DNA of 64,000 nt, taken from NCBI RefSeq assembly GCF_036588685.1, contig NC_086382.1, forward strand, positions 44,578,001 through 44,642,000. Reading direction: 5' to 3'. Shown in pieces: positions 4,601 through 36,070 of the stretch. Origin of the DNA: Mytilus trossulus (taxonomy: Eukaryota). How positions within the stretch are numbered: position 1 is the first letter of the stretch; every line of letters starts with the position of its first letter. The position numbers were made by a program, and so were the translations under genes. A model generated the notes under the pieces. It saw only the letters and a list, made by a program, of their open reading frames with translations. It was not told the DNA's origin and did not search any database.

Positions 4601-7600
4601 CAAATTGATTACGGTATCTTCATATACAAATGTAAATGATTAATTCAAGCCAGGCATCATCTGGAAACATTTTTTTCCCATCTTTTTTAATTCTTTTGTA
4701 ACAGTAACATTGACCTTTGAGATGTTAACCCAAAAATTATTACACTTTTTCTTCCTACCTCAATTTACATTTTATGTGTGTAAGTTATAAGTTCATCAAG
4801 CAGAAGAAACTCGACCGACGGGCAGTATATGTATTTCAGTCGCAGTATTATATGAAAACAAATCCTACATTTCATTGCAAAACAAAGAATTCTTTGTAAA
4901 ATGATACGATTTCAAGCAAAGAAAGTCATTACTGTATTAAAATAATCGTTTTATATTAATTAGATCTAACAAATTATTGTTCTTAAAGTATGTACATAAC
5001 GCTATAACCTGCTTATTGAAGTTGCAAGAATAACCAGGGCATGGGTTGTTGTTGTTTGAAACAAATATTTTATTTTCAACTTTAATTAAAAAAAATGTTT
5101 TTTATCATGGATTGTCATGTAGGACTGAAACCATTAGAATCCTTGTATTTGATCAAATGTTTTCTGATATAGATTAAGTCCATATAACTGTCCATTTCCG
5201 GGCCATTATGACACGCAGGCCTACCGGAACGATGTCCATTACTTGAGTATTTTCAAGGAATGGACAGTTATTTGGATTTTCGCTAACTTTAAATATACCT
5301 TAAATTTTAAAATGAATCTTCAGAGTTTCTATTTGGCAAGGAATCTCAACACCAATTTTTTATATGATTGAATTGTGTGTGCCTTTTTTACAGACCAGTA
5401 TCCTGAAACCCTGAAGCCCATACCGCATAGTCAGCTATAGAAGGCCCCAAAATTGACTCTTGTTTTTAATTATCCCAGAATTGGTAAAGTTTTCAATATA
5501 TGAAAATAAATTTAAATATCCAATGTTAAATTAAGGACATTTTGTGTTATATTGCACTTACTAGACTTCTTAGGCCATCCTGTTCTAAACTGGATGTATT
5601 CTGCATTCTTTTTTTCATGAGCCCAGGTCCACTTATATGGGTCTTCTGCATATAAACCAGTCCAGAAATTACCAGCTTAAGATAGAATAGTGTGTATATA
5701 GAAACCTTATAATTATATCATGTATTTTATTTAAGGTAGTACGCATAGGACTTTACTATTAATTAAAATCGACTGTTAAACAATTAGTCAACAAAGGTGA
5801 ACTGTTCATCAAAACATCAGTAATAAATTTACAGGAGAAATTAGTTATTCAAAGGAAAACCTATACTGCATTTAATTTTTCATTCCACTAAAAGCCAACA
5901 ATAATAATGAAGCCTTCAACAAAATACTATTTATCAAGTAAATATTATTATACATAAGTGATAGTGATTGTGTTAGTAGAATAATATGTTTCAGCGGGTT
6001 TCAAAAGTAATATGCTAAGGCAGCAACCATTTGATTTTCTGGGGGGTAGGGGCTATGGTTTTTTTTGGAAAAAAAGTTTGTTTCCAGGTGTTGGTGAAAA
6101 AAATAATTTGTTTTGGACCCTGAGAAAAAAATTTGTTTGTTTCACCCTCAGCTGCCACTATATGTAATGCTAACATTGAAAGAAAAAAATGTTTTCGGTT
6201 TGTCACTAAAAAAATAGATTGTTCTTCGCCGAAGGCAAAAAAAAAAGTTTGAACAGAAAAAAAAACCATAGTCCCCCCCCCCCTCCAGAAAATCAAATGG
6301 TTGCTGCCTAAGCATTTAGTTGTGAGTAATGGTGTCATCTTTTTCATATGACTTAGGTAAAGGTACGACTGGGGTTTGGGAACACTTTTGAGGTTTTTGT
6401 TTGTGCCTGTTCACACTGATGCTCATATACATACAATAATATACTTTTGTCTTTCGTGTTTATAGGTGTTTCTATTTTGCACAAGTGGACAACACGTAAA
6501 GCTAGTTTGCTTTTTTTTTATGATTATGATGCTAGAATGTGTTCTTTTGATAAAATCTGTTCTTTTACTCTACTGATAGTGAACAGAATTATTATTATTG
6601 CAATTAGTACTTTAAATGAATTGGCACGAAAGTACATATAATACATTGAATAAATATGAAGACAAGAGTACAAAAGAATTGAAATGAGCTTTAGAGTTTA
6701 GTGGCATATTTTGTGTTGGTTTGTTTTTACTTTCATATACAAATGTATACTGTAGCTAGCCAAATTAAAATGCCTATCAATTATCATTTTTTCTTCTATC
6801 TCTGTCATTAACAGTCATTGAGTAGTTTCTGTCATAGACTTAAAAAAACATCTTGGTGTTTTAGAAACTGGTAATTACATACTTTTTTTCGCGGCACGCT
6901 TCATCACCCACGTGTTTTCCTTTGCATTGTCGATTTTAACTAAATAACCACATATTTCCTGACATCTTTTCTGTAAAATATATAGTTATATATTTGTTAT
7001 TGATATAGATTTCAACAGTACATTTTCTTGATACTTGATATTAAGAGCCCATTGAAATTCCCAAAAATCATTCTAATGATTCAAAGCGTTAAACTGATCT
7101 TAAAGGTGTAGAATGACGATATGATTAATTGCATCATCAATATCAAAAGCATCATTTTTTTCTTCTGCAAATGGATTATAAATATCTAATACAGTTGAAT
7201 ATTGAAATAAAGGTTGAATTACAAATAAATATTATATATAATTCCGATGGACGATGGACGAATCTATCGTAGAGTTGTCACTGATTCAGACGTGTTACTT
7301 ATAGATATAATTATTTCTGTGACTGTATCTTGCATTTATTTGTAGGTTCCTTTACAAAAGATAATTCAACTTATCTGTAACAATACCATCTTCATGCCTT
7401 ATATATCATGACTGTATACGACGCTAGATTAAAACTGACGAGGAAAGGTAACACCCGTTAACCGAAAGCTTTATCATTGTGAAGGTGATCGAGTGGTTTA
7501 GCGCGTCGGATAGAGTGCAGGCGATTTGGTGTCACGATATCTCAGTAGCCTGAGTTCGAATCCCTGCCAGGAAAGAACAAAAACAAATTGCGAAAGCAAA

Positions 7601-9154
7601 TTTACAGATCATACATTGTTTGGCTGATGTATAAACGAGTTGTATATATATATTTTAGCCTAAATAAATGTTGTCTATTTCGGTATAGCATAATATATAT
7701 GTTAAAGTAACCTATATTACCTGCATGCTTTTGAAATTACATACTCAAGTACGAACGTTCATAAAATGATGATGAATATACAAATGCATATGATTTTGAA
7801 TTAATCTAAAGGTCAGCAAAAAATAAGTGCTCCGTTCTTTTGCATGTATCGAGTATGGAAACACTGGAAAACACAGATGTGGACAAAAATACTTTGATAT
7901 ACCTCAATAAACTAGGATCAACCCTTAAAAGTTTGATATATTTTTACAAACCTTGGCCCCTTGCCACATTAACAAATCTTTAGAGAAAATATAGCAATGT
8001 CCATTATGTTTTTGTTCATCTGACCATTTTCTTTCTGAAAATATGAATATTTTGAAAATCATTTACAAATAAGTTGATTTTTTTTTTTAGAATATTGGAT
8101 GTTATGTTTCATTTCATTATAAGAATAGAAATAAACCATTTTCAAGATGTCACGATTATGAAGTCCTACACCGGCAAAATAGTGGATAGAATGTTTTATC
8201 TGACCATAAGTTAATTGCATCTTATTGAATAGTAATAATTGTATGTTTATGCAGTCTACTGGTTCATCGGAATTCGACGTTTTGATAATTAACTAAAATA
8301 AGATACGTTCATTTACAAATGTAACATAGCTTGTTTGAAATTGAGTCCGTCGAGGTTACACATCATTAAATCTTAATTCACTGTAGCGTCCATGAAAAGT
8401 AAAACCATTCCCTAGTGCAATAGTAGGAGGTCCAGGAGATATTGAGGAAAGGGATATACTAAAATACTGATGTCTAATACCTGTATCGGTATCTTGGTGC
8501 TCGGAGTAAGTTACTAGTAATATTCACTTTTGGGAATTTTTGTATTATCCTTAATGCCATTGAGCTGTAATATTTAAGTTTATAACTGCTTGTTCAAGTA
8601 TATGTATCTTCATAACTACATTCATTCATTTGTGCAGGAGTTTTGCGCTACGTTGAAGACCCATTAGTGGCCTTCGGCTGTTGTCTGCTCTATGGTCGGG
8701 TTGTTGTCTCTTTGACACATTTTCCATTTCACTTCTCAATTGTATTGTTCGAAAACAAGTAGTATAAGAGCAAAATGCTTGAAAACATGCTGATCACTTT
8801 CATTATATTCCTTGCTTTTTTAAGCCATTTTTATATTCGAAACATATTATCATCCTACAAAGGGAAAAATATAACTGACTTATTGTAAACACATTTGTTA
8901 AACTTACCGTAGAATATTTTATTCACTTCTTTAAACTGTTTCTCCAACTGTTCGATAGAGCGCCGAATTGTTACGATTGGTTCTTTCGTTGAGTATGGTC
9001 CATAGCATTTTCCAAGGAATTTTTCTATATTCTGTAACGGTTCTCTTGCAGTTTCATACTCTTTTAGTGCCGAAAGGGAAATACACGAAGAAGACGCCAA
9101 CACATACGAAACACACACCAGAGTACACACACTAAAGACGATCATTCTTATCAT
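1671..9154 (-). CDS. Secreted C-type lectin domain protein (perlucin-like), ~212 aa, 6 coding exons
   Basis: Exons (minus) 9154-8908, 8034-7952, 6970-6883, 5675-5562, 3281-3183, 1678-1671; all GT-AG with matching phases, total 639 nt. Translation: signal peptide MIRMIVFSVCTLVCVSYVLA, coiled-coil IVTIRRSIEQLEKQFKEV, then CTLD HCYIFS..W..AK-KRC...GYLVKIDNAKENTWV...FWTGL...W.W...C...W....C....YICE. The last 8-nt exon is the least certain. Confidence 0.85.
2500..2810 (+). repeat. High-copy dispersed repeat (…gctgactat…gttgaaggccgtacggtgacctata…ccacatcttcttttttata)
   Basis: Further copies at 28030-28360, 28830-29180, 41960-42150, 47630-47765, 48700-49000, 51690-51835 and 32290-32400 (-). Confidence 0.75.
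3183..3281 (-). CDS. C-type lectin exon 5 (NNSPKCVGLWGHEDGWRNQNCKQPQKYICETDK)
   Basis: tttgtag acceptor, gtaagt donor, CTLD C-terminal C...W....C......ICE motif. Confidence 0.85.
3360..3720 (+). mobile_element. 3' fragment / terminal repeat of the same Penelope-like family
   Basis: Continues the RT 3' sequence seen at ~26910-26955 and shares the gtcagttta..ttcga..tttgactgt tail with 9410-9760, 27000-27140, 1-65 and 57150-57360 (-). Confidence 0.55.
4038..4258 (+). mobile_element. tRNA-derived SINE
   Basis: A-box TGGCCGAGTGG, (CAAT)n tail, degenerate TSD tagaa(g/a)cca. Confidence 0.7.
5562..5675 (-). CDS. C-type lectin exon 4 (TGNFWTGLYAEDPYKWTWAHEKKNAEYIQFRTGWPKKS)
   Basis: WIGL-type motif FWTGL, W.W motif, gtaagt donor; acceptor is aag. 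Confidence 0.85.
6019..6308. mobile_element. PIF/Harbinger-type MITE
   Basis: TIR GGCAGCAACCATTTGATTTTCTGG, TAA target duplication on both sides, 290 bp, no ORF of substance. Confidence 0.8.
6883..6970 (-). CDS. C-type lectin exon 3 (KRCQEICGYLVKIDNAKENTWVMKRAAKK)
   Basis: ttttacag acceptor, gtatgt donor, CTLD C...G.LV.I....EN motif. Confidence 0.85.
7255..7652 (+). mobile_element. Copy of the tRNA-box (TA)n-associated repeat in a lectin intron
   Basis: Collinear with 35652-36050. Confidence 0.7.
7952..8034 (-). CDS. C-type lectin exon 2 (ERKWSDEQKHNGHCYIFSKDLLMWQGAK)
   Basis: ttttcag acceptor, AAG|gtttgt donor, CTLD N-terminal CY.F...W..A motif. Confidence 0.85.
8908..9154 (-). CDS. C-type lectin exon 1 (signal peptide + coiled coil)
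   Basis: Acceptor tttacag before 9164, ATG 9154, donor G|gtaagt; overlaps ORF 8855..9187. Confidence 0.85.
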
Positions 9155-10729
9155 TCTAAAGATTCTGTAAAGTAATGGTTTTGTCATTTAGTTAATTGTT
9201 TGTATTTGATCATTATTATTTATGAATACATCGCTGTTTAAAAGTGATGAAGGGAGAAGTCATTGTGACCAAACATGCATGATCATTGATATGGTCATTA
9301 TATAAAGATGAACTGTTTACAAAAACAAGTAAAATAGCAAAAACACCGAAATTCTAATGAAAAATCAAAACAGAAAGTCCTTTAACAAATATTTATATTT
9401 CCTCTAAATAAGAGACGAAAGATACCAGAGGGATAGTCATATTTACAGATGATATCAGATATGTTCCCAATGTCGTAACTACAATACCCTTCCCTTTTTT
9501 CACAAATGTGACCTACCGAATTAGACTATTTACCGGATTTGTAACAACATAAGCAACACGACTGGTACCACATGTGCAGCAGGATTTGCCGACCCTTCCG
9601 AACCACCTGAGATCATTCCCAGTTTTTGGTGGGGTTCGTGTTTCTTAGTCTTTAGTTTTCTATGTTTTGTCTTCTGTACTATTATGTGTCTGTGTTTGTC
9701 TGTTTATTATTTTCAATCTATGAGTTTGACTGTCCCTCTGGTATTGTTCGTCCCTCTTTTCTGCTCGGACACTGGCAATGTTTTATAAAGTCTGAAAAAG
9801 CAGTTGCAAGCTCTTGAATTCGATTGGGTGTGGAAATGTACATCCCATTTGCTGGTGAAGTTGGTATAAGGTGGGGCAAATTACAAAAAAATAAGATTCT
9901 ATTTGTATTTTTTTTAATACTAAGGTTTTTCTACCCCAGGGATAAACTCAAGTACATGTAGCTGTTTTTGGAAAACCCTTTCGAAATATTTGGTCATTGA
10001 TGCTCTACAACTTCGGACTTTATTAGCCAAACGCGACTGAAGAGTTTTTGTTTAGGTAAAAGCGTGTCTGGTGTACACCATTTTAATCTTAGTATCTATG
10101 ACCAGTTCATTTTCACTTTCAAGTGAAAAAGAGAACTGAAAGAACTCAATGGCTCGTTTGCAGTTTAACGAGCATTACCATTATTATTCTTGTAAAGACA
10201 AGCATACAAGCATACATATAAGATAAGGAATCCATACGTGAAATGTAGTAATTGAAGTTAGTGTAGGTAAATTAAAACAATGATAAGCCATGGATCAGTT
10301 TCAACGAAAGAAAAGAAGAGGTATTCAATTCTTATAGAACAAGAAATATAAGTTTATTTGATAGGTTTTCTATACAATTACAGATACATAGTACATTATT
10401 ATTTATTGCATAACATTAGAAAATATATAGTGAACATTGAAAGATATACAATTTGCTTATTACATAAAGTTTTATAAAGATTTATATCTTATAAATCCGG
10501 CCCTTGTACATAATCAAGATATTCTACTTGAAAGTTGAAATATGTGTACTATAGTGTCAAGAATTCTATCAACTACTTCATCATGTGGTTAAAACGTGAC
10601 AAAATTGTTTTTTTTTGTTTTTAAAAAAATGTGTTCATTTACTCTCTATATATATACTCTCCAATTCATCATACATTATAAGAACTAATTATGATAAACA
10701 AATGTTTCATTAACAAGAGCAAGATATAA

Positions 10730-12900
10730 TAGAATATTATTAAGACGGGGATATTAATCTAAAGGGAGTTTTAAATGCCCACACTAATGATAATGATTCT
10801 GACTATCTCACAAACGAAGTTGATGATAATCTAGATGATTTTCCATTTCTACCTATTAATCATATAGCAGGAAAAGTGTTTAAAATTTTCCAAATCTCCA
10901 ACAGGTATGGGAAACAAATTTTATCTTGTATTTCATCTCAACCAAGAATTTTAAATGGAAGAACTTAAGAGATTTGAAAGGAAAGAGTTAATTACATGGA
11001 ATTTCTATTGATGGTTATTGTATCTGTAGTTCAAGGTTGTATCATGAATCTGATAGTTGATAAATTTAAACCAACAGTATCAGTACGTTGTCCAATGACA
11101 GTAAATATGTTATCCCAAATATATCAGCAACAAGAAAGCATACTTATAGAACATAACAAGGACTTATGAACGCGAAAGAGTTATAACCAATTATAACTGA
11201 ATTGGATAGTCTCTCAGAAATGAATTCTATTCAGAAAATTTTGGTATCTTGTATAGAACAGAAAATTAGTACACCAGTGTCAAATATGTCAACGTTTTGG
11301 TTATAACGCAGCCGTCCTTGTATTTAAAAGAAACTGCAGAAGAGCGAGTTGAAAGAGTAAATGTAGAAAAGTAAAATAACCCTTTTATGGCAATGAATTG
11401 AAGCACACTTCAGAGCTTTCAAGCATCAAGCCAGAAAACTATATAATAACCCTGAAATAAAGCACTAAGATTACAAGTACTGTCCAAAAATAAGGCATTT
11501 CAAATGCTATGATAAAAAAAATATAGACAATTTGGAAACAAAATGCTGACTTAGCTCTTAGAATCAAATAATTCTACAGGTGAATTTTGGAAAACTATCA
11601 ACACTTTTAAAAAGAAAGAAATCAATGACCCAAGTTCGAATATATAAGCTAAAGAAGGGTTTGAATATTTTAGAAATCTAATGAACACCTATCATAACAA
11701 AAATATGATGTAAATTCATGTATTGGTAAAGACATTTCAATATGATTAGTTATCAAAAGTACCAGGATTATAATTTAGTACTCCAGACGCGCGTTTCGTC
11801 TACATTAGACTCTTCAGAGAGTTAAGTATTTTTGTGATTTTACTTTTTTCATATCAAAATATTTATAAAGCCAAACGGGTAAAAAATTTACGAGCATTGA
11901 GGATCTAAAATCCCAAAATATTGTGCCAAATAGGGAGAAGGTAATCTATTCCTAGGATAAAAAAAATACTTAGTTTTTTCAAAAAAATTTAAGTTTTGTT
12001 AACATGAAATTTATAAAGTGGAGAGACACGTTTAATAATCTATATTTAAAGGGGGATGTTCAATTGACCCTTCACACTGCAGAGGTATAGCCCTTTCTAG
12101 TTGTTTTGTTAAAACAAATTCTAGAGTTCTATTTTTAATCGTTCAGAAAAATACTTGCCATCAACTAAATAGGATTCAAAAAAAGGATGTAGAACAAGCC
12201 ACCATATTTTAACATTAAAAACTAATTGATAGAGATTTTAAATCTTCCAAAAAAATATATGTCGGGTTCATTGACTTTAAAAAAAAAAGAAGCTTTTGAC
12301 ACTATAAACAGATAAGTCCTTCTCCACAAACTTTTCACATGTTGCATAATAGGATTTTTTTGTGAAATTTTATAAGACAGGATTTAAAATGTCCCATTTG
12401 CAGTTAAAATTCCTGATAGTATTACTGAAAAGTTTCATATTATAGTTGAAGTAAAACAAAAGTTTATCTAAAGCTCTTTTTTTTTATATATATATATATA
12501 AATGACTTAACCTCCTTTTTTGATAGTACGCGTGACCCTGTTACTTTATACGACATAAATGTATCCTTTTTTAATTATTTGGTGATGATTAAGTAGTAAT
12601 ATCAGAATCAGTAGATGGATTGCATAATTGTTTTAACAAGTTAAAAGTCAACTGTGAGAAATGGAACTTAACAATAAATATTGAAAAGACAAAGGCAGTG
12701 ATAATTAATAAACGTAGGGAACAAATTGCAAAAGAAGCCTTAGCAAAGAAGGTCCGGGAAAGTAACAATACATTTTGGAAAAATAGCCTTTTAATGATGA
12801 CAATTTAATGAATGGAAATAAGTTAAGAACTTAGAGAAAATTTAAAGTAGGAACTTGAAAAATATCTTTAAATAAATTTAGAAAAACATATTATTAAAAA
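10730..12900 (+). mobile_element. Highly degenerate non-LTR retrotransposon (CR1/L2-group-like EN+RT relic)
   Basis: Broken motifs G.FNAHT (~10765), FIDFKK-AFDTIN (~12270), YINDL (~12497), LFGDD (~12576), WNLTINIEKTK (ORF 12620..12808); interrupted by a hammerhead repeat at 11750-12015. Confidence 0.7.
11780..11821 (-). ncRNA. Degenerate type I hammerhead ribozyme
   Basis: CUGAAGA GUCU-AAUGU-AGAC GAAA CGCGCGUC UGGAGU; 5' stem I disrupted. Confidence 0.55.
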
Positions 12901-13791
12901 CTGTTGCTTGCAAATAAACGTCTTAGAAAAGTCGTCACTACTGCTGGCTCTCGTGTTTGATTGAAGGAGAATGCAATATGATTTGGGGACCATCTCAAAA
13001 ACTACAAATGCTAAATATTTTGTTACCTGTTTGGGATTGTTCGATACCGCTGAAATTAATGTTAAGCAATTGATTTTTTTTTAAAACGCAGGAGAAAATC
13101 AATTTTTATTTCAAGAACCAGAAAATGTTTATCAAATTCATTTTTAAAACATTTTCTTCTAACATTTTTTATAACAAATGGTGGGAGGGTGTGGTTTTTC
13201 TATCTACGAAAGCCATAAATGGACCCACGCAAAATAATCAACCCGTTTTCTCGAATTGGCAATCTGTGATCTGACACGACTAATCTTTGATAGATAATCT
13301 GTGATGATGGATTTGTAATCTGCGATCTCGGATTGACAATCTATTTAGTCATGACAATGGATTCACTTTTTTTATAAGATAGTAAAACTCGCATTTACTT
13401 AAAACTAGCTTCAAGTCATAAATAATTAAAAAATAATGCAAGGTCTCTATAAACATACGGAAGCCGTTGTTATTTGCTTTATGCTAGCTTTCAGTAACTG
13501 CGAGTTCTCTAATATTGGTAATTTGTGTTTTCTGACGATATGTTAGTTGTTTTTTCGGCAATATAATGAGTTGACACGTTACTAACTCATTTTTACAGTA
13601 AGTACTAATAAATGTTGTACTGTTAAAACTAACACCACTGTCCAAGGTTAAAAGGAGGGTTTCAGTGGCCATACAGGATATCAAATGTTTTATACCTTTG
13701 AAGATGACCACAGGTCGTATTGAATTCGTCCTCTATCCAACACGAGCGCCAACAGTAGTATCGACTTTTCTAACACGTCTAAATTAAACCA

Positions 13792-14528
13792 TCATAGATA
13801 CCAGGACTAAATTTAGTATAGACGCTAGACGCGCGTTTCGTCTTCTAAAAACTCAGCAGTGACGCACGAATCCCAAAAAGTTTAAAATGCCAAATAAAGT
13901 ACGATGTTGAAGAGCATTGAGAACCAAAATTCCTAAAAGTTTTGCCAAATACAGCTAAGTTAATATATGCCTGAGGTAGAAAAGCCTTAGTATTTAAAAA
14001 AAATTCAAAAATTTGTAAACAGTAAATTTATGAATATAACCATATCAATGACAATTCATGTCAGCACAAAAAGTGCTGACTACTGGGCTTGTGATACCCT
14101 CGGGGAAATAAATCTCCACCAGCAGTGGCATCGACCCAGTGGTTGTAAATCAACTCATCATATATACCAGGACTAAATTTAGTGTATACGCCAGACTCGC
14201 GTTTCGTCTTCTAAAGACTCATCAGTGACGCTCGAATCCCAAAAAATAAAAAATGCCAAATAAAGTACAAAGTTGAAGAGCATTGAGAACCAAAATTCCT
14301 AAAAGTTTTGCCAAATACAGCTAAGTTAATATATGCCTGAGGTAGAAAAGCCTTAGTATTTAAAAAAAAATCAAAAATTTGTAAACAGTAAATTTATGAA
14401 TATAACCATATCAATGACAATTCATGTCAGCACAAAAAGTGCTGACTACAAGGGTTGTTATACTCTCGGGAAATAAATCTCCACCAGCAGTGGTTGCAAA
14501 TTAACTCAATATAGATACCAGGACTAAT
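13792..14528 (-). mobile_element. Tandem dimer of a ~366-nt hammerhead-containing repeat (retrozyme-like non-autonomous element)
   Basis: ccaggactaa recurs at 13801, 14167 and 14518; each full unit carries a hammerhead (first copy core mutated to CUGCUGA). Related fragments at 11750-12015, 20438-20660, 23920-24115 (+), 35183-35400. Confidence 0.8.
14188..14233 (-). ncRNA. Type I hammerhead ribozyme (subfamily 1) in tandem repeat
   Basis: GAGCGUCA CUGAUGA GUCUU-UAG-AAGAC GAAA CGCGAGUC/UGGCGU. Confidence 0.82.
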
Positions 14529-16770
14529 TGACACGGTAGGTTTAAATATTTAGGAAAAGAGGTTGTGCCCTCTATGTAATATAGAGGTTAGAATAATTTC
14601 AAGCTGCAGTAATGAGTACACAACTCAATAACTCTTGAATAAAAATGATTTATGAAATTTATGATACTGATCTTAGTTTTATTTCAATGAGTAACGTGGG
14701 AAACTTTTTATTTTATTTTCTCTTGTAAAGAATATGATATTTTGATAATTATTCCTTATGACATAAATGATATGTATAATTACAGAAACAGTGTTGGTAA
14801 CTGTGTATGAGCTGTTAATATCATATGTACATTTTGTTTTCTACACTTAAATCAAAATAATATGAATGAATAATTTGGAGTTAAGCAGCATTTCCTTTAA
14901 ATAAAACAATGTTAAGCTTCTTTAAATGAAAGGCATGTCGTCTTACATTTTTTTTTTTTTGTAAATGTTACATTATTTATTGTTTATTTGTGTTTGTTTT
15001 TAGTTACATCATATTGTTTGGAATTTATAGTAATTATATATTTTATCTTATCTTATCTTATTAAAACTGATCTACGGGAACATTTTCGTACAGTATACAA
15101 TATCAATAGATTTCGATACTTCAAAATCTTAAAAAAATCAAGTATTTGTAATAGAAAAATCGTTCTAACCGCTTTTGTGTAAAACAAGAAAGTAGTATTA
15201 TTATAAATATTTTTAACAAAACATGAATAAAGTGAATAAAGAGAGTAGGCCTACTTACGTTTAGTACAGTTGTTTGACTTCTTCGGTGGAAAAGTGGCGT
15301 GCACTGTTGATATGGTAATCTGATATTAACAGCTGTATCATTAAAATGAAATTTGACTAAAACAGATCAATAATACCAAAATCATCAACAACACATCTTC
15401 AACACGTTTTATCAGATTCTGCACAACAAATCACATTTTCAAATCTCCACTGAAACCAATATTGCATAGGTAATTTGAAGGAAAAATCTATTATACTCCA
15501 ATATAATTTGCCATTCCCAGACGTCCAAACTAAGTGGCAAAAAACGAGAAAACTCCAAATATTTTACAAAATAAGACAGTGGAAATTGATTTAACATTGC
15601 ATACTTAATACATGAAAGTATGAGTCAATTAAGGTGCTAAGACACATTACTCATTACGTGTGTGTTAGTATCTGAATATCCCGGTTTTCAAACGATGCCA
15701 TTCAATCTTTAATTTGCATGAATATATTCTATGAATAACTCGTGCAAATATTTGTGAAAAACGAGTTTTAATTATAATCGTGATTTCACAGATATAAACA
15801 ATATTTTCACAGCTTTCAGAAAATTGCAACAATAAGAGCTATGTACACAGAGTACGTGATATGTATTTAAGTCAAAATGTTTGGAATCTACAATAGTAAC
15901 AACTTTAACTTACTCGATTTTCATCAATATTGGAGACCTATATTTCATATAGTTTAGATATGCTAATCAATAGCTGCATTAGTCTCCGACTTTTCAGCAT
16001 TGTTTCCCTTTCAATTGTTTTGAAATATTGATTCATTTTGAATAAGATAAAGACTTTGAAGTATTTATATCTTAGAAAAAAGTAAAATAACAAAATATAA
16101 TCTAAAATTAATCAAAACGAAAATCAAATGACGAAACCAAAAGCTTAAACGCATTAAACAAATGTATAACAACTTTCATAATATTCCTGTCTTGGTACAT
16201 TTATAGCAACTTTGAAGCAAATAACTTTTTATTGTTATCTATGTGTTAAAGACCAAATTTCATATTCTAAAATGGAAAATTATGATCGTTGTTTATTCTC
16301 TGAAGTGTATGTTTCTGTATATTTTTTACCTGCATTGTCTGATTTCCGACAGAAGAATTCATTGTTGACGGGAGATCATTGGAAGTCTGTTTTCAAAATT
16401 TTCTTTTTGAAATATTCTAGATTCGGAACCATTTAGATATTTCCAACGTGTGCAAACATGTTTTATTTGTGAAGATGTAGATGTATTTTTGTTATTTGAA
16501 TAGTGGAATTACTTAAAATATTGGTGAATTATCCAAATTTATTTTTATTCACAATAACGAGTGCATTTGGTAGTAAAAAAAGAGACCTTTAATTTTGATC
16601 AATGTTATTTAGTTGGAAAGTAATTTACGCTATTTACCAGCTAGTAGCATGTAGTATCGTTTTGATAATGAGACAATTGTAACAATTCAATGGCAATTAT
16701 ACATATATATATCTGTTTATGAACAAATAGAAATTAATAGAAATTATTATATCATCTAATATTCGTTTAA

Positions 16771-17530
16771 GGTCAAGGAACAGTAAATGGGCTATGTCGC
16801 AGATTTTGCCCAAAATTTGCATACAACCGTGGCTCGTTGAACTACAATTAAAAATCGAAAAAATAGTACATTTATCTCTTTTATTATCTGAAAAATTGCA
16901 GATTGATTTCTGTTAATATGGTTGAATATTTGTATAGAAAGCACATAAAATCTAATTCTACTCCATAGATTTTTCTTAAAAAACTATATATTGTTGACAC
17001 ATAAATTTCTGTTTTAATGATATAAAATAATCATAGGGTCACCGACTCCGTTTTTTGTCTAACAATCAATTTGTTACCTTGTTGGTAGTGAAAAACGTCA
17101 AAAATAAACGTTTTACGGCCTGCAACGCGATACCGTTACGATTATTTCGACGTTTTGTTGGATTTTTTCACAAAGAACGCAACTTTGAATGATGAATACC
17201 GTAAAAACGAAGTCGGTGACCCTATCTTTATTTTGCATCATTATAACGGAAATTTATGTATCAACAATATATAGTTTTTTAAGAAAAATCTATGGAGTAG
17301 AATAAGAGATTTGGCGATTTTAAGACAAATTTTAGAAGGGTTTTCGCCGATTTTATGTGCTTTCTATACAAATGTTCACCCATTTTGTAAGAATTCAATG
17401 AGTAATATTTCAAATGATAATTGAGATAAATGCATTATTTTTTCGATTTTCAGTTGAAGTACATTGAGCTAGAGTTGTATGCCAAATTTTACTGAAATCT
17501 GTGACATAGCCCATTTACTGTAACTTGACC
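16771..17530. mobile_element. TTAA-targeting foldback MITE (Kolobok-like GG..CC ends)
   Basis: Near whole-length palindrome; TTAA at 16767-16770 and 17531-17534; empty site with a single TTAA at 41371-41374. Confidence 0.85.
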
Positions 17531-18262
17531 TTAAGTGTTTAATATGTCAGTCCTTTGTGACTATCAAACAACTTTCAGCGCCATTCACATACAGGATAGA
17601 TCCACCATCCTTGTTTTGTTTTCTGCAATGAAAGTCAGACATGATTGTTTATAGATATACAAATAAAATGCGTTATGTTTGAAAAGAAACAATCTACAAT
17701 AGAATTTAAATGGATCTCAATATTCAATACCTGGGTGTTGAATTTTAATTTTCCTCTACACAAAATGTGGAATTATATTTTCTGTAAGTGACTGGAATTA
17801 GAAAAAGTATAACAAATATATCAGACTCCGAGGTAAATAAAAAAATATATAGTACATAAAAACTGACAAAACTGTAAAGATTCTTTGCTATAGCATTAAT
17901 TGATACTGTTTAACATTGTTTTTTTTTCATATTTTTACAGTTTTTTGTTGATGTCTTTACTACCGATAATGTAAAATTAAATGATTTTTCTTATAAATAA
18001 AAAGTTTTATCGCCACCGAATTTGTAATTTGTAAATGTATCATCCCATTATGCATGTCGTATTTAAAAACAGTGAAAATTAACATGCCGATGAACGACGC
18101 AATGCTTGTTAAATTTATTGTTTGAATTGAAATTTGTGATTTGCTCAAATACACAATTTCAATCCTTGTATCTATGATGAGTTGATTTAATTATTTTTGC
18201 CTTTTAAAGAATTTTTTCTACGTGATATATTCAACTATTAATAATAATACTCCGTATCTTAA

Positions 18263-18541: not shown

Positions 18542-20468
18542 TTAACACTTTTCCCATCAATAAAACGAAGGTGTTGTTGGTTATTATTACAACATTTTAT
18601 GGATTTGATTTGTTTTTTAGTGTTTTTCTCTGCTCTCTGCAATTCACTTACAACAGAGACATATAATACAATATAATTGTATTTATATGTCTCTGCTCAC
18701 AATAATGCTAATGACACATAGTAATCTGCTTACTTTGAAAGAATGTTAAACTGATCAGATATTTTACATAAGAGCCGCCGTCTAGTAAACAATGTAAATA
18801 ATGCAATTTGAGAAAAAAGATGATAGTTACGATACTGTGTATCATGTTTACATTTATAGTGACATTTATCGCTATTTTTTGCATTTTTCTTTTGATATTT
18901 TTTTGTGATAATTTTCATATCATTCTTCTCGCTTGAGATGGAATAATTATCACTAGAAACTAAGGAGGCCACGTGGCGTTGCTAACGAAATTGACATGAA
19001 CATGATGAAATTGACAACGTCGTCATAGGTAAAATAGCGATAAATAGATTATCATTGTTCATCTCAACTCGATTGCTTTTCTCACTTTCGCTGTACCAGC
19101 TCAAGCGAGAAAATCAATCTCGTTGAGATGATCAACGATAATCTATAATTATCATTTTGTTTTTGTTTACTGTAATTTATATTCAAAGGTGAAAAACTAA
19201 GATAAAAAGGTATATTTATTGTAAACTAATTGAGAAATTGACCATTTATTAACCTGTTTCGTCTGGAAACAGCTATTTATTTATGATCTTTGGAACGACA
19301 TTTTTATGAGCAAATGGTTTAAAGTATGAGAAATTTATTTATTGTGTGTTAAGCTTTGTTTGTAAAACGTGAATACAGACCTTGAAATATTTTCCGCCTC
19401 TTGTATACTTTGAGGCAATGGCATATTTTTAGTTTCTGGAAGTGCAAACGATAGTAAACCAGCACAAATACCAAAAGCACCAAATATTACCAGCGGTAAG
19501 GCAACACCAAATTTTGTATCAACCAATACACCCTACAAATATATGAAATGAATTGAATGGAATTGTTTTCTACTTGAATTTATTATAACTGTTACATGAA
19601 GATCTGTCAACTGTAACTTATGTTATTATTATTTAACTGTTTTTATTTTTTTGCTTTCGAAGGTTATTTCTATTCCTATCATGATTATGTATGTTCTTAT
19701 TTTACCTTTATCATAGCATGCCTCTAGTGTTTATGGTTTTTTTTATTCTTGAAATCGTATTTTTATAAAGCAGAAAATTAACAGAACCCCGCAAGCTAAA
19801 TTGTGTTTTGAAAAAATAAAACTTTATATACATCTTGTTAAAATTTCGTGATTAGTATGAAAATTTATCATCATACAGAAATAAATATGAAATGATCTCA
19901 ATAACAAATATCTACCAAATCACCAACATAAGCGGACACCATTGATCCAGCATACCCAGCTGAGCTGAAAATTCCAAGCGCAAATGATCTGAGGTTAGTT
20001 GGGAAATTTTCCGCCACCATCAGATAAATATTAAAGTATGCCACTGATATTGTGAGTTTTCCTATCATAGCCAAGGTTATCGTCAACCAGTGTAGGGCTG
20101 TAGTAGACAAAAGAAAATAGGATTAATTAATACTGAATAAAAAATTATATCTGCTTATAGAATACGAAAACACATGTTATGATAAATTTTCAGGCAATTT
20201 TTTTTTCTCTTTTAAAAAACAAACTAGGTATCATAATTCATCCGTCGAGATTTCATTGTATTTAAATAAAAAAAAAATTCAGAGAAAGAATTAAAAATGT
20301 GCAGGACGGACTTTAAATCAATTAAGGTTGATGTGGTACATTCAGTACAATAAAGGCAACAGTAGTATACCGCTGTTCGAAATAAATCGATTGAGAGAAG
20401 AACAAATCCGGGTTACAAACTAAAATTGAGGGACGTAGTTATCAAAGGTACCGGGATTATAATTTAGT

Positions 20469-20514
20469 ACGCCAGATGCGCGTTTCGTTTACATAAGACT
20501 CATCAGTGACGCTC
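20469..20514 (-). ncRNA. Type I hammerhead ribozyme (subfamily 1)
   Basis: GAGCGUCA CUGAUGA GUCUUAUGUAAAC GAAA CGCGCAUC/UGGCGU; mismatches in stems II and III. Confidence 0.7.
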
Positions 20515-21309
20515 ATATTAAAATATTTATAAAGCCAAACAAGTACAAAGATGAAGAGCATTGAGGATTCAAAATTCCAAAAAGTTGTGCAAAATACGGC
20601 GTAGGTAATCATTGCCTGGGATAAGAAAATCCTATGTTTTTCGAAAAATCCAAACTATTGATATTCATTTTAACCCCGAAGACTACTGGGCTGGCGATAC
20701 CCTCGGGGACGAAACGTCCACCAGCAGGAAACATATCAAATATAAGAGAAGACTACTGGGCTGGCGATACCCTCGGGGACGAAAAGTCCACCAGCAGGAA
20801 ACATATCAAATATAAGAGAAGAAAGACACAACAGAAACACAACATTGAAATGTAACACACACAGAAACATACTATAATATAACAATGGTCATTTTCCTGA
20901 CTTTGACAGGACATTTTAAGAAAAAACTGGTGGGTTGAATCTGGTTTTGTGGTATGCCAAACCTCCCGCTTTTATGTTTATATTAAATGTAATATTAAAA
21001 TGGCAACATTTCATGACAGGACTACAACACAAAATAATGGAAGAAACATATAGAACAGATAAACACACGAATACATGCAATAGCTAACAAAAGGTACCAG
21101 GTTTAAAATGATATACGCCACACGCGTGTTTCGTCCACACAAGACCAACCAGCGACGCTACAACCTATATAAAAGAATTTTAAAAGAAGTCTAATCATGA
21201 TATGTAAACAAGACAATTATTTCAGTATGTGCGCTCTTCTTTGTTTTCTTGCATATATGGATATGGGTGCAATGTTTCGGTTCAATGCGTTTTTATTGTT
21301 ATACCCCTG

Positions 21310-22790
21310 TTGACAGAACCGACCTCTTCATATATGATTTATCGTAAGAGCATAAAATGTGTTAAACTTTTTTTTTATTATTATGACCGTTGAACATTGA
21401 AATTTAAACACAGCCGACCTCTCATAGCAACTCATCTTACAAAATTTATCAACATCTTTGGATGTAGGGTCAATGTTCCGGTTCCAAATTTTTTGTTTGG
21501 GGGTTATGCTATTTTGAACTAGAAACAGTTTGATAGGTCCGACCTTGTCATCGTAACTGGTTATCTGAGGGTTATCGCAACATCATAAAAACTACCACAT
21601 TGTTAGATCCATCATATGCAGATGTTCATGTCATTTGAGTCTTTTGTCAATTTGCCCATTGAACTTTAAAATATTGATATAACCGACCTTGTTGGCATCA
21701 CAACTCCTCATACATTGTTTATCGTATTAGCATAAAAACTTATTCATCGGTAGATGCTAAAATGCAGATGTTTGTTTGGGAACGATGTTCCGGTCCTTTG
21801 GTTTTTATTAAGTCCTTTGTACTTGGTAGAAATTTAAACAAAACTGACCATCTCATTCAACTCCTCTTACATGACTTTACATCATATATATGGATGTTGG
21901 ACGCATGATCGGTTCAATGCCATTTTGAAATAGGAAAAGGAGTAGGTCCAGTAAGACCCATTTTTGGCCCCAAAATATAGCAGTTTTATAAAATTGTTAA
22001 AATGTAAACTTTTAGTTATTTATTGGACAGCAGAATGCTTCTTCTCTACATAAATATGGACTGTTTTTGACAATACAATGCACATATATCGGGTACTTGC
22101 ACCATTAAGTCATGCTAAATTACTGAAATCTACACAATTCTATCATTTAAGTTAAATTTTAAACGGTTTTCGTGTAAAACGAAAGAGACCGCATTCGTGT
22201 TCATCCATAATATTGAAATGTAAGTTGTGTTTTATAATAATACGTAACATATATAAAGGTTGAGGATGAACACGGATGCGGCCACTTTCATTTTTGACAA
22301 AAACCATCCGAAAATTGACATTTTTCGGCATATTTGGTAGATTTTTCATATTTGATCTTGAATTGGATCGTTTTTAATGACTAAATCAGTTAAAATCTTT
22401 CACATACACTTATTGATTCAAATGAAATAGACGCTTGAGTGTTTAAAAAGGGGTCAAAATCTTTCGTCAGATAAGCCTGATATTTGAGGCCAAAATCGGT
22501 CCTTACCGGACCTACTCCTTTCGATAAAGTCGACCTTGTATCTCAATTCATCAAACATAGTTAAACGTATCTTCATTATACTTCTCCATTGTTAGATCCT
22601 AATTTAAAGATGTGCATGCGCATAAGATGTTCCTGTCATTTCGTTTTTAATGCTCCCCCTTTTAGTTTTTGAATTTTGGCAGAACTGCCTTTGTCATCGC
22701 AACTCATTCTACATGCTGATATCAATTTACATGTAAACTCAATAATTTCTTGCCAAAAGCATATACGAAATTATAATACTAATATCTATG
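21310..22790. repeat. Degenerate ~140-bp tandem repeat (Helentron/HINE-like core), split by a TIR element
   Basis: gacc(t)tgtcatcgcaactc motif recurs near 21320, 21416, 21541, 21684, 21846, 22531 and 22687. Confidence 0.55.
21936..22521. mobile_element. Non-autonomous TIR element, superfamily unassigned
   Basis: TIR AAAGGAGTAGGTCC(A/G)GTAAG; no clear TSD; inserted in a ~140-bp satellite. Confidence 0.7.
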
Positions 22791-24038
22791 CAAACTCCCC
22801 CGCAGTTCCAACTCCGATCCGCATACGGGTCCGCATACTACTCTACACATTGATGATGTGCAGGAAAATAGTAATAGGAACGGAAACGATCACTGTACGG
22901 AGTTCGGTATCTATGATGAGTTTATTTACCACTTCCACCGCATCGTTGATTAACGGGTGCATATGGCTGATATACGGCGAATCTATGAAATTCATAATAA
23001 AAATTCAGACCAAATGTTTCATCAAGAATTGAAAGTTGTGTATACAGTTAATTTACAATTATGATTATACAGTATCAGTACTGGACTGGTGATTCCCTAG
23101 AGGAATAAAACTCGACCGGCAGTAAATCGGCCAAGTAGTTGTAAAGGAATTCATCATATTAAAGCTTGTTAAAAAGTGTTTAATGTACTACTTACATGGG
23201 CCACCGTACAAAGATGAAAATATTGTACACAGACAACCGATGCCACAAATTAACATAGAAGAACTGAATATTTTCTTTCTTCCAAGTCTTTCCACAACAT
23301 AAAGACATATGAATAAGGCAATTACTTCAGCTGACGTTGATATTAAATAATTCACATAGACATCCCCACCTAAGTTACCAACTTTCATTGTGATCCCAAA
23401 ATAAGTCATACTTATTGAAAACCTGTAAAACAATTCAATATTAAGCTACATTTTCACCATAACAGAAGAAAGTGTACTAACACATTTTGTACCAAACACA
23501 GTCAAAAACAGTGCAAAAAATATTGTTTTTTATTTCATCATACTATCTCTCACAATCAGTTTTTTTTTTTTTTAGAAAATTTGAAGAATAATATTATTAA
23601 ACGTACACGTTTTATTTATAACACATACAACTTTATAGCGATCTCGAATACGTCAGTGATTCCATGTTTACTTAAGAATGTGTTAGCAATTCCTTTCAGT
23701 TTTATATATCATATTTTCATTTTTTAAATAACTTTTTGTTCGGTTTCCCTTTTTAAAGGTAAATATAATAAAAATAAAGTTTATCAAATACGTGTTGCTG
23801 GTATGAGGAGAAATGCAAACTCCGTCAATTATAATTGTTTTTACAGCTACATCTACATTGTGCCTTTTGTCTGAACAGCATTACTGGAAACTGCTGGGAA
23901 CTGGCAAATACAGTTGTTCAATCTGTGCATATTTTGTAATTCCAGGCATTGATTACCTTAGCCGTATTTGGCACAATTTTTTGGATCCTCAATGCTCTTC
24001 AACTTTGTACTTGTTTGGCTTTATAAATATTTTGATAT

Positions 24039-24084
24039 GAGCGTCACTGATGAGACTTCTGTAGACGAAACGCGCGTCTGGCGT
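24039..24084 (+). ncRNA. Type I hammerhead ribozyme (subfamily 1)
   Basis: GAGCGUCA CUGAUGA GACUUCUGUAGAC GAAA CGCGCGUC/UGGCGU; one stem II mismatch; predicted cleavage after 24078. Confidence 0.8.
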
Positions 24085-25734
24085 ACTAAATTATAATCCT
24101 GGTACCTTTGCAAACTATTGTAACTTTTTATAATAAGATAAAATGTGATATGATTGCCTATAACTAACCATCAATCGTTCAAATGCATTAAATAAAAGTA
24201 TCATATATGATTAATATCATTATTGAGTTGAAATTGCTTTGCCTGGACACGTCATAAAATGAATACATTTCTTGGCATAGTGGTAGAACGATTGCCTTCA
24301 GTGTGATATAGTGTGCTCGATTTCAGGTAGTTTCAAATGAAAGCCTTGACCTTTTACCTCCCTGCCAAATATGCGTCCTCAATTAGAACAGACTGATCGA
24401 TTTGAAGTCATAAGTGTGTGGGTATGATAACATGTCCATTTTCTAGCTTTTAGCTTGTTAAATAGCACATTGAATATCCGGCTACGCGTGTCGGTCAAAT
24501 ATAAAACTGTCACCGGACGTTCAACAATAATTCAAACTTCCATGCTGTCATAATATGGCATTGCTTTATAAAATACTCCAAAATATTGCTGCCAATAAAT
24601 TGATGTACTAACTAATTTACAAACGTGTTTAGGTTATTGTTTCAAAATACTTACCAATTAAACATAAAAATAGACAATCGAACAGTTAGAATTTTTGACT
24701 TGTAAAGCTCTCCGACGGCTGTACAAAATGCAACCTTTTCATGTTACTCATCAACCTTAATTTTCTGAATGTCAATTTCGAAATTAGCATTATTTTCTTT
24801 TGCAATATCCTTTAGAATCATTTCAGATCTTGATGACTTCCCCTTCGCTATCAACCATCGTGCCGACTCTTTCTGGAATCTTAGATATATTATTGCTAAC
24901 TATAATTATTTGCGTTCGAAATGAAAATTGTTTGAGGGGCTATCATTTTCGTACGCTGTTGATAATATTATGTAGACGTAATGCACTTTTGGCGTACCAA
25001 ATTGTAAGCCTTGGATAATTGAATATTTTTTGTTAAAACTTTTTTACCAATTCAGATAGATCTATATTGTAAAATCTGTGTTTATTCAGTCGCAATTAAA
25101 ACACAAAAAAATGCTTTATCGAGTATATAAATTTTATGGAAACTTATTTAACCAAAATGTCAAATGGAGAACAGCAATACCATTACTGTTCCTTTAATCT
25201 TTGTGTTTCCATGTACGCGTAGTGATTTTGTGTCTGGAATTGTTTTGCCATATCCTGTCGTTTCCTTAAATTAAATTTATTCTTATAGTTTTGCTGCATT
25301 TAAAATAAAGCTATGTATTTGCTATGATAATACTTGATATATATATATCTTTCTTTCTACTTTCGAAAATATGGTTTAACATGTGGCTATCTATGAACGA
25401 ATAAACTCAGTTAAAATATACGGCTTCATTATATTACTTGATATATATCTACATACAGTAATGAGGTGAGAAATATACCAACAACTATTGATGTTGACCA
25501 GCCCAGAATACGCCAATCCCTGATAAAGTAGGCAAAAATAACAAGCACGTATTCTCCAATGCAGAAGGAGAAATAATAGGCAAAGTTTGCGAAAACTCTT
25601 TTAGAGGGATCCACCAATTTGGTAGCTAGAACGAAAACATCTAAACTGATGAACATCATTAATATGCACAAAACATATTTATATCCTACAGATTTTGAAC
25701 TGTTACAGTGAGGTTTTTGATACAAATCAGAATT

Positions 25735-27140
25735 AAGAAACTGAATTGGTCTATCAATGCCCATGCTACGTCAATCTTTAAAGACCATCAATGTTGTAAA
25801 CACGTATCCTACCTCCATGACAAATTTGTTGTTGTCCCCGCAGAGAATCCCGAAACAACATCTAACCAAAGAAAATATCCTGGATAATCATAGGTCTTTA
25901 CTAACTTCCTTTGGAATTTCAACCAAAGATGAAGAACTGGGTCTTCAATCACTGTATTGCATACCTAAACTACTTAAGTGTCCTTACAAACCATGGTATA
26001 TTGCTGGGTCTTCCAAGTGCTCCACGAAACCTCTTCCTAAATTATTTACATCCATTTTGACAGCAATATTAGGCGGACTTTGAAGTTATTGTGAAGCTGC
26101 CTATTCTAGAGGTGGTATGAATCAGATGTGGCTACTAAAAAAATCCAAAGATCTTTTAGAGTACATACAATCTAACTCTCTTTCATCTGTAATATTATTA
26201 AAACATTTTACTTTTCTCCACTTTACAAAAGTATTCCACATTTCAAACTTTAAGACAAATTGAAAGAGTTGGTATTGGTTTATTTCATAAAAAAGAATGA
26301 CCAACGTAGATACAAGTATATTGTCTTAGGGAGGGATAAATCCTACTTTGTAAAGAATCAATCTGATTAAAACAAAAAATTCTTTGAAACTGACATTATC
26401 AAGATCTTGATTTCTTGATTGACAACATATTTGTATCGTTCGTAGGACGTGTTTTTCAACAGACTGTCAGAATTCCAATGAGAAGCAATTGAGCCCCTCT
26501 TCTTGTCGACTTATTTCTTTATTATTATGAGGCTGTCTTCATACATGAACTTCTTAGGAAGAAAGTTAAGAAGTTAGCAATATCCTTTAATTTAACGTTC
26601 CGCTATATAGATGAATTTCTCTCACTACATAATTTGAAAATTGGTGACTATGTTGAACGCATGTATCCCATCGAATTAGAGCTAAAGGATACAACAGATA
26701 CAGCTAAGTCGACCTCATATCTTGACATACATCTAGAAATTGACAGTGAGGGTCGTCTGAAAAAAAAACTTTACGAGATGATTTCAGCTTTCCAATTGTG
26801 AACTTTTTATTTCTAAGTAGCAACATTCCAGCAGCACTTACATACGGGGTATATATCTCCCAATTGATACGATATTCCCATGCTTATATTTCCTATCATG
26901 ATTTTATGATAGAGTGTTTCTATTTACAAGGAAACCATTAAACCAAGAGTTCCAAACCATCTGATTAAGACTATTTACCGGATTTGTTTACCGGATTTGT
27001 TATAGCATGAGCAACACAACGGGTGCACATGTGGAGCAGGATCTGCTTACCCTTACGGCATGTGTACTATTGCTTGTCTTTTCCATTTTTAGCCATCGCG
27101 TTGTCAGTTTAATTTCGATTTTTAAATTTGACTGTTCCTC
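25735..27140 (+). mobile_element. Degenerate Penelope-like retroelement (RT relic plus terminal repeat)
   Basis: LY(C)IPKL.K.PYK...IAGSSKCSTKPL in ORF 25757..26083, then broken Q..(G)IPM...APLL.DLFL and FRYIDE (RYIDD) near 26600; multiple frameshifts; absent from the equivalent intron of copy B. Confidence 0.8.
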
Positions 27141-29244
27141 TTGTATCTTTTTCTCTCTTTTTTAATAATTGACGTAAAGTTGAATTATTCCAAATGAGAA
27201 TAGCAAATTTATTATTTTCGCTAACTGTAATTGCAATGCATCATCTAAAATAGAATAAATTTTGAATGCCAATTTTATGAGTCTTCAAATTCGCTGTCAT
27301 GTTTCCGTTTAGTGAACGTTAAAACATATCCCTACTAATCACATACTTTTATGGGACACAGCATACCTAGAATATAACCTGGATCATACACAAGCATGCT
27401 GAAATAACCGTTCGCAAAAATCAGGAAACCAACAAGTGGAAGAGACGAAACGAAAGATCTTATCAAATTTGGTAACATCATTCCTATAAGCGCTGTTGTC
27501 AAAACAGGTCGTCTACCTAATCTGAATTTGAAGAAATATATTGTGTATGAGTTGGTTACCAAATTAAACAAAACAGCTTGAACAGTATGTTCCTTCTGGT
27601 GGTTTTATTTAAGAAACTTATTAACTAAACAGAATCGCTTATTAAGTTGATAGAGACGTGATATGATCTTGATGTAATCAGTCATAATTTTAAAAGTGTT
27701 AACACAGTGATTTGTTTCGCCTGAGTGTCATTTCGGCTACGTAATTCAAAAATTAAAAAGCAAACACTGAAATCTGTTCACTATGCCAACGTTTCAAAGA
27801 CAGTAGACTTTCGAGGAGACGGCGGCGCCAAGTGGTCTCCACGGAAATAAATGTACCAATACCAATTGAACTTCCTACCAAATATTATTATGACGTATTT
27901 ACACTTAATCCGTTGGATGTTGGATGCCTATTACATGATAACTTAGTCTTAGAAGCATGATTTTTTATTATTTGTTATTGGCTGTTTATTCAATTGGTTT
28001 AATACTTATAATGAATTGTAACATCATGGTCCTAGATTAGGGGAGGATTGGGATCCACCTAACATATTTACCATATTTACATTCTATATGTATGTTACTG
28101 ACCCAAACCAAGAGCCTGTAATTCAGCAGTTGTCGATTTTTGCTATGTTACATACTTGTTTTTGTTCAGTTTTTTGGAACATTAATGAGGTCGCGAGTTT
28201 TGTATTGATTTGCAGTTTTCATGTTGGTGACTTTCATAGCTGACTATACGGTATGGTCTTTGTTCATTGTTGAGGGCCGTATACTGACCCGTAGTTGTTA
28301 ATTTTTGTGTCACTGTGGAGAGTTGTCTCATTGTAATCATACCACATCTTCTTTTTATATATACAGTAAGTTCAAACAGAATAGGACATACACTCTAACT
28401 ATTACGGAAATGTTGTATACCTAGCCCGGAAATTGAAATATGATTCAAGTAAACGTACCGATCTTTTTCAATTAACTTATACTAAAATGTTACTAATTCA
28501 ACAATGTTATTAGGTCTTTAAATGTTGTTTTTAAGTGTAAAAATATTGATTTTGCTATCAGGAAATCAAAACCAAATAAAAAAGTATAGTATATAAAAAT
28601 GCATATGCACGGAATTACAATCTTTTAATACCTGTAATTAGGTATGGCACGTTTTTCTCGGACTGCTAAAGACGTCTTTGCACTTAATTCATTGGATTTT
28701 GGATGTGCACTGATTGATATTTAAGATACTAATTTTTCAGTCGGTGTTATTGACTTCAAATTCATTGTCAGTAACTCAGAGTATTCTCAGATTTGTAACC
28801 TGTAATTTTGTATTGTGGGATGTATAAAAACCTCCACTGTCCAAGGTTAAGGGAGAGTGTGGGGCCTCCAAACATGTTTAATCACGCTATATTCTGTATG
28901 TGTATGTACCAAGTCAAAACCTGTAATTCAGGGGTATTCGTTTGTTGCTGTAAATCATATTTTTGTTATGTTCATTGTTTTGAACATAAACCAGGCCGTT
29001 AGTTTTCTCGTATCAATTATTTACATTTATCATTTAGGGGCATTTTATAAATACCTATGGAGTATGTATTTTGTTCATAGTTGAAGGACTAAGAATGACC
29101 TATGGTTGGAAATTTATATGTCGTTTAGTCTCTGGTGGATTGTTGTATCATTGGCAATTATAAAACATTATATTATTCTTATAATATATGCGATAATTAG
29201 TTTGTCTCAGGTGAGATAATAAAATTAACGGTACCAATTTTCTT

Positions 29245-29290
29245 GCACCAGATGCGCATTTCGACAATACATGTCTCTTCAGTGATGCTC
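29245..29290 (-). ncRNA. Type I hammerhead ribozyme (subfamily 2), all stems intact
   Basis: Minus strand GAGCAUCA CUGAAGA GACA-UGUAU-UGUC GAAA UGCGCAUC/UGGUGC; stem I GCAUCA:UGGUGC, palindromic stem III AUGCGCAU, AUC cleavage triplet. Confidence 0.85.
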
Positions 29291-35211: not shown

Positions 35212-35257
35212 ACGACGGACGCGCGTTTCGTCTACATAAGACTCATCAGTGACGCTC
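35212..35257 (-). ncRNA. Type I hammerhead ribozyme (subfamily 1), stem I weakened
   Basis: CUGAUGA GUCU-UAUGU-AGAC GAAA CGCGCGUC intact; 3' strand of stem I mutated. Confidence 0.7.

Positions 35258-36039: not shown

Positions 36040-36070
<31 letters not shown>
35652..36070 (+). mobile_element. ~440-bp repeat with internal tRNA-like A/B boxes, ending in (TA)n
   Basis: A box TGGTCGTGTGG (~35887), B box GGTTCGAATCC (~35954); further copies at 7255-7652, 37205-37360, 61180-61308 and 61310-61550 (-). Confidence 0.75.

Follow-up and report, generated by a model that had tools for sequence, protein, structure and literature searches.

Non-LTR retrozymes have been known in the genus Mytilus since 2020. 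In M. galloprovincialis, about 5000 type I hammerheads were found in two similar families with 350-390-bp repeats (PMC7229834). A single cloned mussel repeat self-cleaved co-transcriptionally at about 0.1/min, the RNA was mostly circular in vivo, and the circles were abundant in gonad and mantle by northern blot; RtcB ligation in vitro and Penelope-like elements (PLEs) as candidate mobilisers were reported in the same study (PMC7229834). Amphibian relatives in design are newt satellite 2 and the axolotl Amex1 and Amex2, which resemble the locus described here in their 330-350-bp tandem units, type I hammerhead, palindromic stem III region and circles (PMC7229834). PLEs share with it a partial tandem layout, 5′ truncation, a terminal extension of about 33 nt and a fixed 3′ end downstream of the hammerhead (PMC4209133, PMC8557442, PMC11167929), the PLE tail measuring 30-40 bp (PMC8557442).

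Combining repeat comparison with contig depth, we mapped an array of about 2.04 head-to-tail units to the minus strand at positions 13780..14527 of the window, that is, of the whole 64-kb stretch of DNA analysed. Four of 24 listed sequencing runs were matched to 13300-14240 at a likeness of at least 85%; X23 and X24 are raw RNA reads, while X15 and X17 consist of contigs, probably of DNA, whose kind is unrecorded. The left boundary, first placed at 13792, had to be moved to about 13780, where contig depth in X15 steps from below 45,000 to above 1.6 million. Positions 13780-14079 and 14146-14445 form a 300-nt direct repeat (94% identity, 366-nt spacing), and a third, partial piece of 30 nt at 14498..14527 (minus), the 5′ copy of the 3′ extension, is 87% identical to 13781-13810. 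The two units plus the start of a third, with lengths of 366 and 351 nt, given in the original prediction were thus recovered. Read in the sense direction, the array starts about 16 nt after one cut site and ends 48 nt after another, with a terminal redundancy of about 33 nt. Its first (5′) unit (14194..14527, minus) lacks the first 15 nt or so after the cut site and carries a 14-nt and a 1-nt deletion; the second unit by position numbering measures 351 nt because these 14 + 1 nt are missing. The sole cut-to-cut monomer (13828..14193, minus) has 366 nt and 36% GC, and the 3′ extension past the cut site (13780..13827, minus; 48 nt) has the end that is common to most dispersed copies. The monomer is 62% paired in the circular fold, the linear strand gives a weak fold signal (z -1.8), and a GC-rich branched hairpin region lies at 14080-14130 within the unit.

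The longest stop-to-stop frame touching the array has only 61 aa, in line with the predicted lack of an ORF. The repeat comparison of the array revealed no LTR layout, with PBS and PPT judged by eye only, and the array is absent from the TRF listing. A crude scan found no exact match to Pol III SINE-type A and B box motifs on either strand; a bacterial promoter scan, irrelevant for mussel DNA, stayed at chance level. No clear target-site duplication was seen at the array ends, the nearest being a 6/7 match offset by 1-2 nt with its left copy inside older host sequence. In the search for an empty site, the stretch was spanned by no listed contig, and the inverted host arm at 12902-12999 had no continuation on the right flank.

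Between 13900 and 14079 (a comparison to which no strand applies) the two units are nearly identical, differing at 3 of 180 positions compared with 24 of 202 outside this tract (Fisher p 7.5e-5, boundaries picked after inspection). Judged from these differences, the tract is likely a product of gene conversion between units, and the higher divergence near the unit ends than in the middle suggests age plus a conversion tract. Among the positions listed (40 of 115, with subfamilies mixed), most X24 reads differ from unit 1 at 22; at these, unit 2 agrees with unit 1 in 12 cases, with the family in 9 and with neither in 1. Such a pattern is compatible with a single template for both units.

Pattern search and alignment mapped one minus-strand hammerhead to each full unit, again as predicted. 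Hammerhead A (14187..14233, core 14225-14194) is a type I motif with an intact core, made up of a 6-bp stem I, CUGAUGA, a 4-bp stem II, GAAA, and a stem III of 2 bp with a GCGA loop, which we take to be of the GNRA type. Its stem III is ACGCGAGU (AC-GCGA-GU), and its predicted cut lies between 14194 and 14193. Hammerhead B (13821..13867, core 13859-13828) has the broken core CUGCUGA (13856), a stem I mismatch at 13826 and a palindromic stem III, ACGCGCGU (AC-GCGC-GU), with a nominal cut between 13828 and 13827. The core adenine lost in hammerhead B is invariant in hammerheads. The family majority departs from hammerhead B at 13856, 13850 and 13826, CUGAUGA being present at 13856 in 95% and 88% of the reads of the two RNA runs. 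A self-complementary octamer had been proposed as the family consensus of stem III, and ACGCGCGU is the majority by both measures: G stands at 14197 in 85% (X24) and 93% (X23) of RNA reads, and in 81% (X15) and 91% (X17) of contig depth.

The intact-core pattern occurs six times in the window against 0.14 expected, a number reached in 0 of 100 shuffles. In the alignment of 10 hammerhead motifs, 92.5% of cells are paired and 4 of 12 pairs have two-sided changes, all four stemming from one sequence at 29251-29282. At the gathering score Rfam gave zero matches for the array. Hammerhead matches below threshold were obtained at 14196-14234 (31.4 bits, E 0.0021) and 13830-13868 (25.1 bits, E 0.13); the best Hammerhead_1 (RF00163) score in the window was 30.7 against a cut-off of 34 bits, at 11780-11823; for the two array motifs it was the type III model that matched, likewise below the cut-off. 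The RF00163 consensus has the hammerhead core and the ACGCGCGU stem III. A literature search for a 15-nt hammerhead motif gave no match. At 29244-29290 (minus), the window also has a single copy of a diverged type I hammerhead, with stem III still palindromic (AUGCGCAU) and four two-sided compensatory changes relative to the array family; by its sequence it probably belongs to another family.

Metazoan non-LTR retrozymes are non-coding tandem units of about 150-450 bp with GC below 50% and one canonical type I hammerhead per unit, in high-copy, expressed families; they lack LTR, PBS and PPT, give unit-length circular RNA and may have target-site duplications longer than 4 bp. Here, the units of 366 and 351 nt are non-coding with 36% GC, each has one such hammerhead (one of the two mutated), and the family is high-copy and expressed. 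With the M. galloprovincialis elements (PMC7229834; MN642551-MN642576) the array shares its genus and an abundance of RNA; in both, non-coding tandem units in the 350-390-bp class contain less than 50% GC and a single canonical type I hammerhead, and there are two similar subfamilies. This copy is decayed, and the likeness lies in genus and anatomy. On that footing, the array likely belongs to the mussel non-LTR retrozymes already published. We regard it as very probable that the locus represents a high-copy Mytilus repeat, likely this published retrozyme, in an old copy of two units, and that it is a predicted dead end through one broken core. The proposal of a retrozyme giving unit-length circles and mobilised in trans is probably right, fits the mussel family (PMC7229834) and is not new: circles were already shown for mussel retrozymes, so the predicted circle is published for the genus. 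As an ordinary decayed copy among thousands, the locus by itself matters little, and the shared 3′ end described below is a useful by-product.

BLAST of the window with the array and the copy at 20436 as queries identified 17 other family pieces in the 64 kb, belonging to two tail subfamilies and including one diverged motif at 29251-29282. Most of them are single and truncated, not tandem. A pattern scan of metagenomes added three copies (L001-L003), all single and truncated, and all with a GCGC loop although the search pattern had left the loop free; the same family pattern gave 0 matches in viral contigs and 0 in bacterial or archaeal genomes. The array repeat is high-copy in Mytilus.

Family RNA was detected in both RNA runs, with 6370 of 7,335,232 records (X23) and 2767 of 12,728,340 records (X24) matching at a likeness of at least 85%. 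X23 has a strand bias of 3.3:1 towards the read orientation expected of minus-strand RNA under most stranded protocols (that of X23 is not on record), and X24 is unbiased (ratio 0.96); the family RNA is likely sense-biased. The cut site was crossed by RNA reads, 664 of them at 14185 in X23, and in none of the four runs did read ends pile up over 13300-14240. The tail-to-body junction (14143), which single truncated copies lack, was crossed by 882 reads in X23 and 107 in X24. Loose read ends at this junction carry the tail of the other subfamily, and at 14107 about 76% of the sense-direction reads of X23 have that subfamily's version, which suggests that the other subfamily dominates the family RNA. 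Going-back joints were present in the RNA runs but also in X15 and X17; since these are probably DNA, such joints, the back-splice signal suggested earlier as a check, leave circles inseparable from tandem DNA or a tandem transcript. Only 25 of 6370 (X23) and 12 of 2767 (X24) reads, all from other individuals, were at least 99% alike to the locus, and the flank downstream of the array had almost no RNA reads, so that the reads speak for family RNA and are not evidence for this locus.

Cleavage had been predicted to depend on dimers, as in newt satellite 2 and ASBVd, the octamer being judged too short for a stable hairpin in a monomer. This was overstated. A weak amphibian class with one base pair and a palindromic tetraloop is distinguished from an invertebrate class with two pairs and a tetraloop (PMC7229834); Amex1 is of the first kind and needs dimers, whereas the array motif has two pairs and a tetraloop, like Amex2 and the invertebrates. 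Dimer assistance is plausible, and the palindromic octamer, kept in 8 of the 10 aligned motifs including the diverged AUGCGCAU with its two-sided change, makes such help likely. In our reading, the family hammerhead is monomer-competent and probably dimer-assisted. That it cleaves only as a double hammerhead, with only tandem transcripts processed and circles protected from recutting, seems improbable to us. The conserved octamer and the GCGC loops of L001-L003 argue for that stricter mode, as do a palindrome duplex of -13.3 kcal/mol against +2.4 for the isolated hairpin, the dimers proposed for such motifs (PMC4209133, PMC3088659), and the axolotl 2-bp type, whose monomer reached only 22% cleavage in 1 h and whose dimer cleaved much better (PMC7229834). 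Set against these are the cloned mussel repeat, which cut as a single repeat (a dimer of two transcripts in trans may be possible there), and a review in which most invertebrate type I motifs have a stable helix III and cleave efficiently as monomers (PMC7761336); moreover, the same octamer is the Rfam type I consensus.

Folding energies were obtained with Turner 2004 parameters and refer to secondary structure only. When four hammerhead stretches were folded in isolation and unconstrained, the active fold did not appear (z 0.45, 1.0, 0.25 and -0.36), which speaks neither for nor against it. Under constraint in the native 426-nt context, the cost above the minimum was +7.3 kcal/mol for monomer A, +13.2 for the double hammerhead, whose A-B fold has two unpairable positions, and +17.8 for monomer B. 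The GCGA loop hairpin of hammerhead A (+1.6 kcal/mol) is 0.8 better than the palindrome hairpin (+2.4), and the same change makes the A-B duplex 5.7 kcal/mol worse. The locus had been thought possibly inactive on two grounds, of which the broken core CUGCUGA stands; the change in the second palindrome is not inactivating, because GCGA slightly favours the monomer hairpin. As core B is broken, unit release from this locus is probably absent. From these models, one cut by hammerhead A at 13780-14527 is plausible and two-cut unit release unlikely. The two consecutive complete hammerheads by which an active retrozyme is recognised in the Li et al. 2026 preprint are not present here, core B reading CUGCUGA.

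We consider it very unlikely that the locus is itself active, yielding its own 366-nt RNA by SLC22 read-through, with core A cutting site B in the double fold and its own site in the monomer fold. Core A is intact, and the last SLC22 exon, encoded on the same strand, lies about 3 kb upstream of the array; the rarity of reads at least 99% alike, the nearly read-free downstream flank (in other individuals) and the +13.2 kcal/mol double fold with its two unpairable positions argue against such activity.

Of the 17 dispersed window copies, eleven terminate at one common motif lying 39-52 nt beyond the cut; their 5′ starts vary. Six of them are single 5′-truncated copies that cross the cut site (11747-12017, 20436-20822, 21082-21159, 23931-24117, 35180-35402 and 9902-10113), the copy at 20436-20822 having an internal 70-nt tandem duplication. 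The other five consist of tail sequence only, are 26-41 nt long and lie entirely on the downstream side of the cut (18149-18189, 22906-22932, 41509-41534, 57733-57771 and 60369-60396). Among the remaining pieces, four end elsewhere (9273, 23079, 60059 and 60953) and two could not be placed (24968 and 29248). All three metagenome loci also end at the tail motif. On a 366-nt unit, the chance of such clustering is p 2e-10, or 4e-4 for 6 of 12 when tail-only pieces are left out, with end positions called by eye and in one window only.

Such a common 3′ end is reminiscent of the Penelope tail and suggests that reverse transcription was primed internally. For an anole PLE, internal priming downstream of the hammerhead was reported, and in vitro unprocessed RNA served as template and hammerhead cleavage was not needed (PMC11167929). 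A preprint argues that animal retrozymes derive from PLEs and relates Xenopus retrozymes to PLE pLTRs; mussels and tails do not appear in the accessible part of it (10.64898/2026.07.22.740005). In the literature searched, supplements and subscription papers aside, retrozymes are nowhere described as sharing a 3′ end, and the accessible main text of PMC7229834 has no shared 3′ end, tail or truncated dispersed copies.

We tentatively propose, at rather less than even confidence, that mussel retrozymes carry a Penelope-type tail, that a fixed internal site, some 45 nt beyond the cut, is where reverse transcription begins, and that longer copies need a cut-spanning template. With such a start, a cleaved linear monomer would yield only tail-sized pieces, like the five in the window, and copies crossing the cut would call for a template continuous across it, either a circle or an uncut multimer. 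If true, this would be genomic evidence for the template and would pinpoint the RNA element recognised by a specific PLE protein, so that the mobiliser could be tested in vitro. The enzyme that mobilises animal retrozymes is still only a proposal (PLEs); with a fixed priming site, a defined substrate would become available for the in vitro PLE assay of PMC11167929. Coming from one window, the tail observation is a modest lead.

No autonomous PLE signature (an ORF with RT and GIY-YIG) was found in or beside the array, and the array differs from PLEs in having no ORF and in its canonical hammerhead with full helix III instead of the minimal PLE variant. Elsewhere in the window, a frameshifted and decayed reverse-transcriptase-like fragment, presumably of Penelope/Naiad type, lies within an SLC22 intron at about 25770-26900 (+). 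Pfam assigned no family to any of five ORF pieces, including this fragment.

Alternatively, the repeat could be the end fragment of a Penelope element, non-autonomous and templated by uncleaved multimeric RNA; circles would then be a by-product, and arrays such as this one would arise from local DNA duplication. This reading differs from the preferred explanation mainly in the template, and we judge it unlikely. The fixed 3′ end with 5′ truncation is like PLE insertions, the anole PLE used unprocessed RNA in vitro, Xenopus retrozymes are related to PLE pLTRs, and the homogenised tract would reflect DNA-level exchange between units. Against it, the units differ by about 12% at both ends, hammerhead included, which is unlike a recent simple duplication; mussel retrozyme RNA is mostly circular in vivo (PMC7229834); and we found no similarity between the ends of the 25770-26900 fragment and those of the array.

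In the retrozyme explanation that we prefer, tandem copies would be transcribed on the hammerhead strand; family RNA was seen, and the strand is suggested by one library. Each hammerhead would cut alone, as published for the mussel clone, probably with help from the double-hammerhead palindrome, and the unit RNAs would be ligated into circles by a host ligase, for which published circles and in vitro RtcB ligation provide the precedent. A Penelope-type enzyme would then likely start reverse transcription about 45 nt past the cut and copy back across it. Judging from the genomic ends, the products would mostly be 5′-truncated singles with one common 3′ end, and sometimes copies of more than two turns, such as the array. 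After insertion the units would have decayed and been partly homogenised, and at this locus hammerhead A may be able to cut once, the usual two-cut release of a unit being unlikely.

The window also contains two tandem SLC22 organic cation transporter genes on the minus strand (31924-17550 and 50344-41390), which explain the long two-copy repeats D6, D7, D9, D10, D12, D15, D17 and D19. About 3 kb separate the array from the downstream end of the first gene (31924-17550). The flanking SLC22 exon places the host in Mytilus: four SLC22 proteins of Mytilus edulis (four matches among 21 candidates) are 93-95% identical to it. An old inverted repeat (72%) was mapped to 12902-12999 and 13697-13794, its right arm ending at the left boundary of the array. 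Long inverted repeats or hairpins at 16767-17534, 22160-22312 and 56166-56562 (I1, I3 and I6), with miRNA-like matches below threshold, are probably MITE-like elements. In addition, 22-nt minisatellite arrays were found at 35112-35179, 38337-38669 and 52445-53148. Finally, a dispersed repeat family adjoining (TA)n runs was mapped to 7417-7653, 35811-36056 and 61221-61551.
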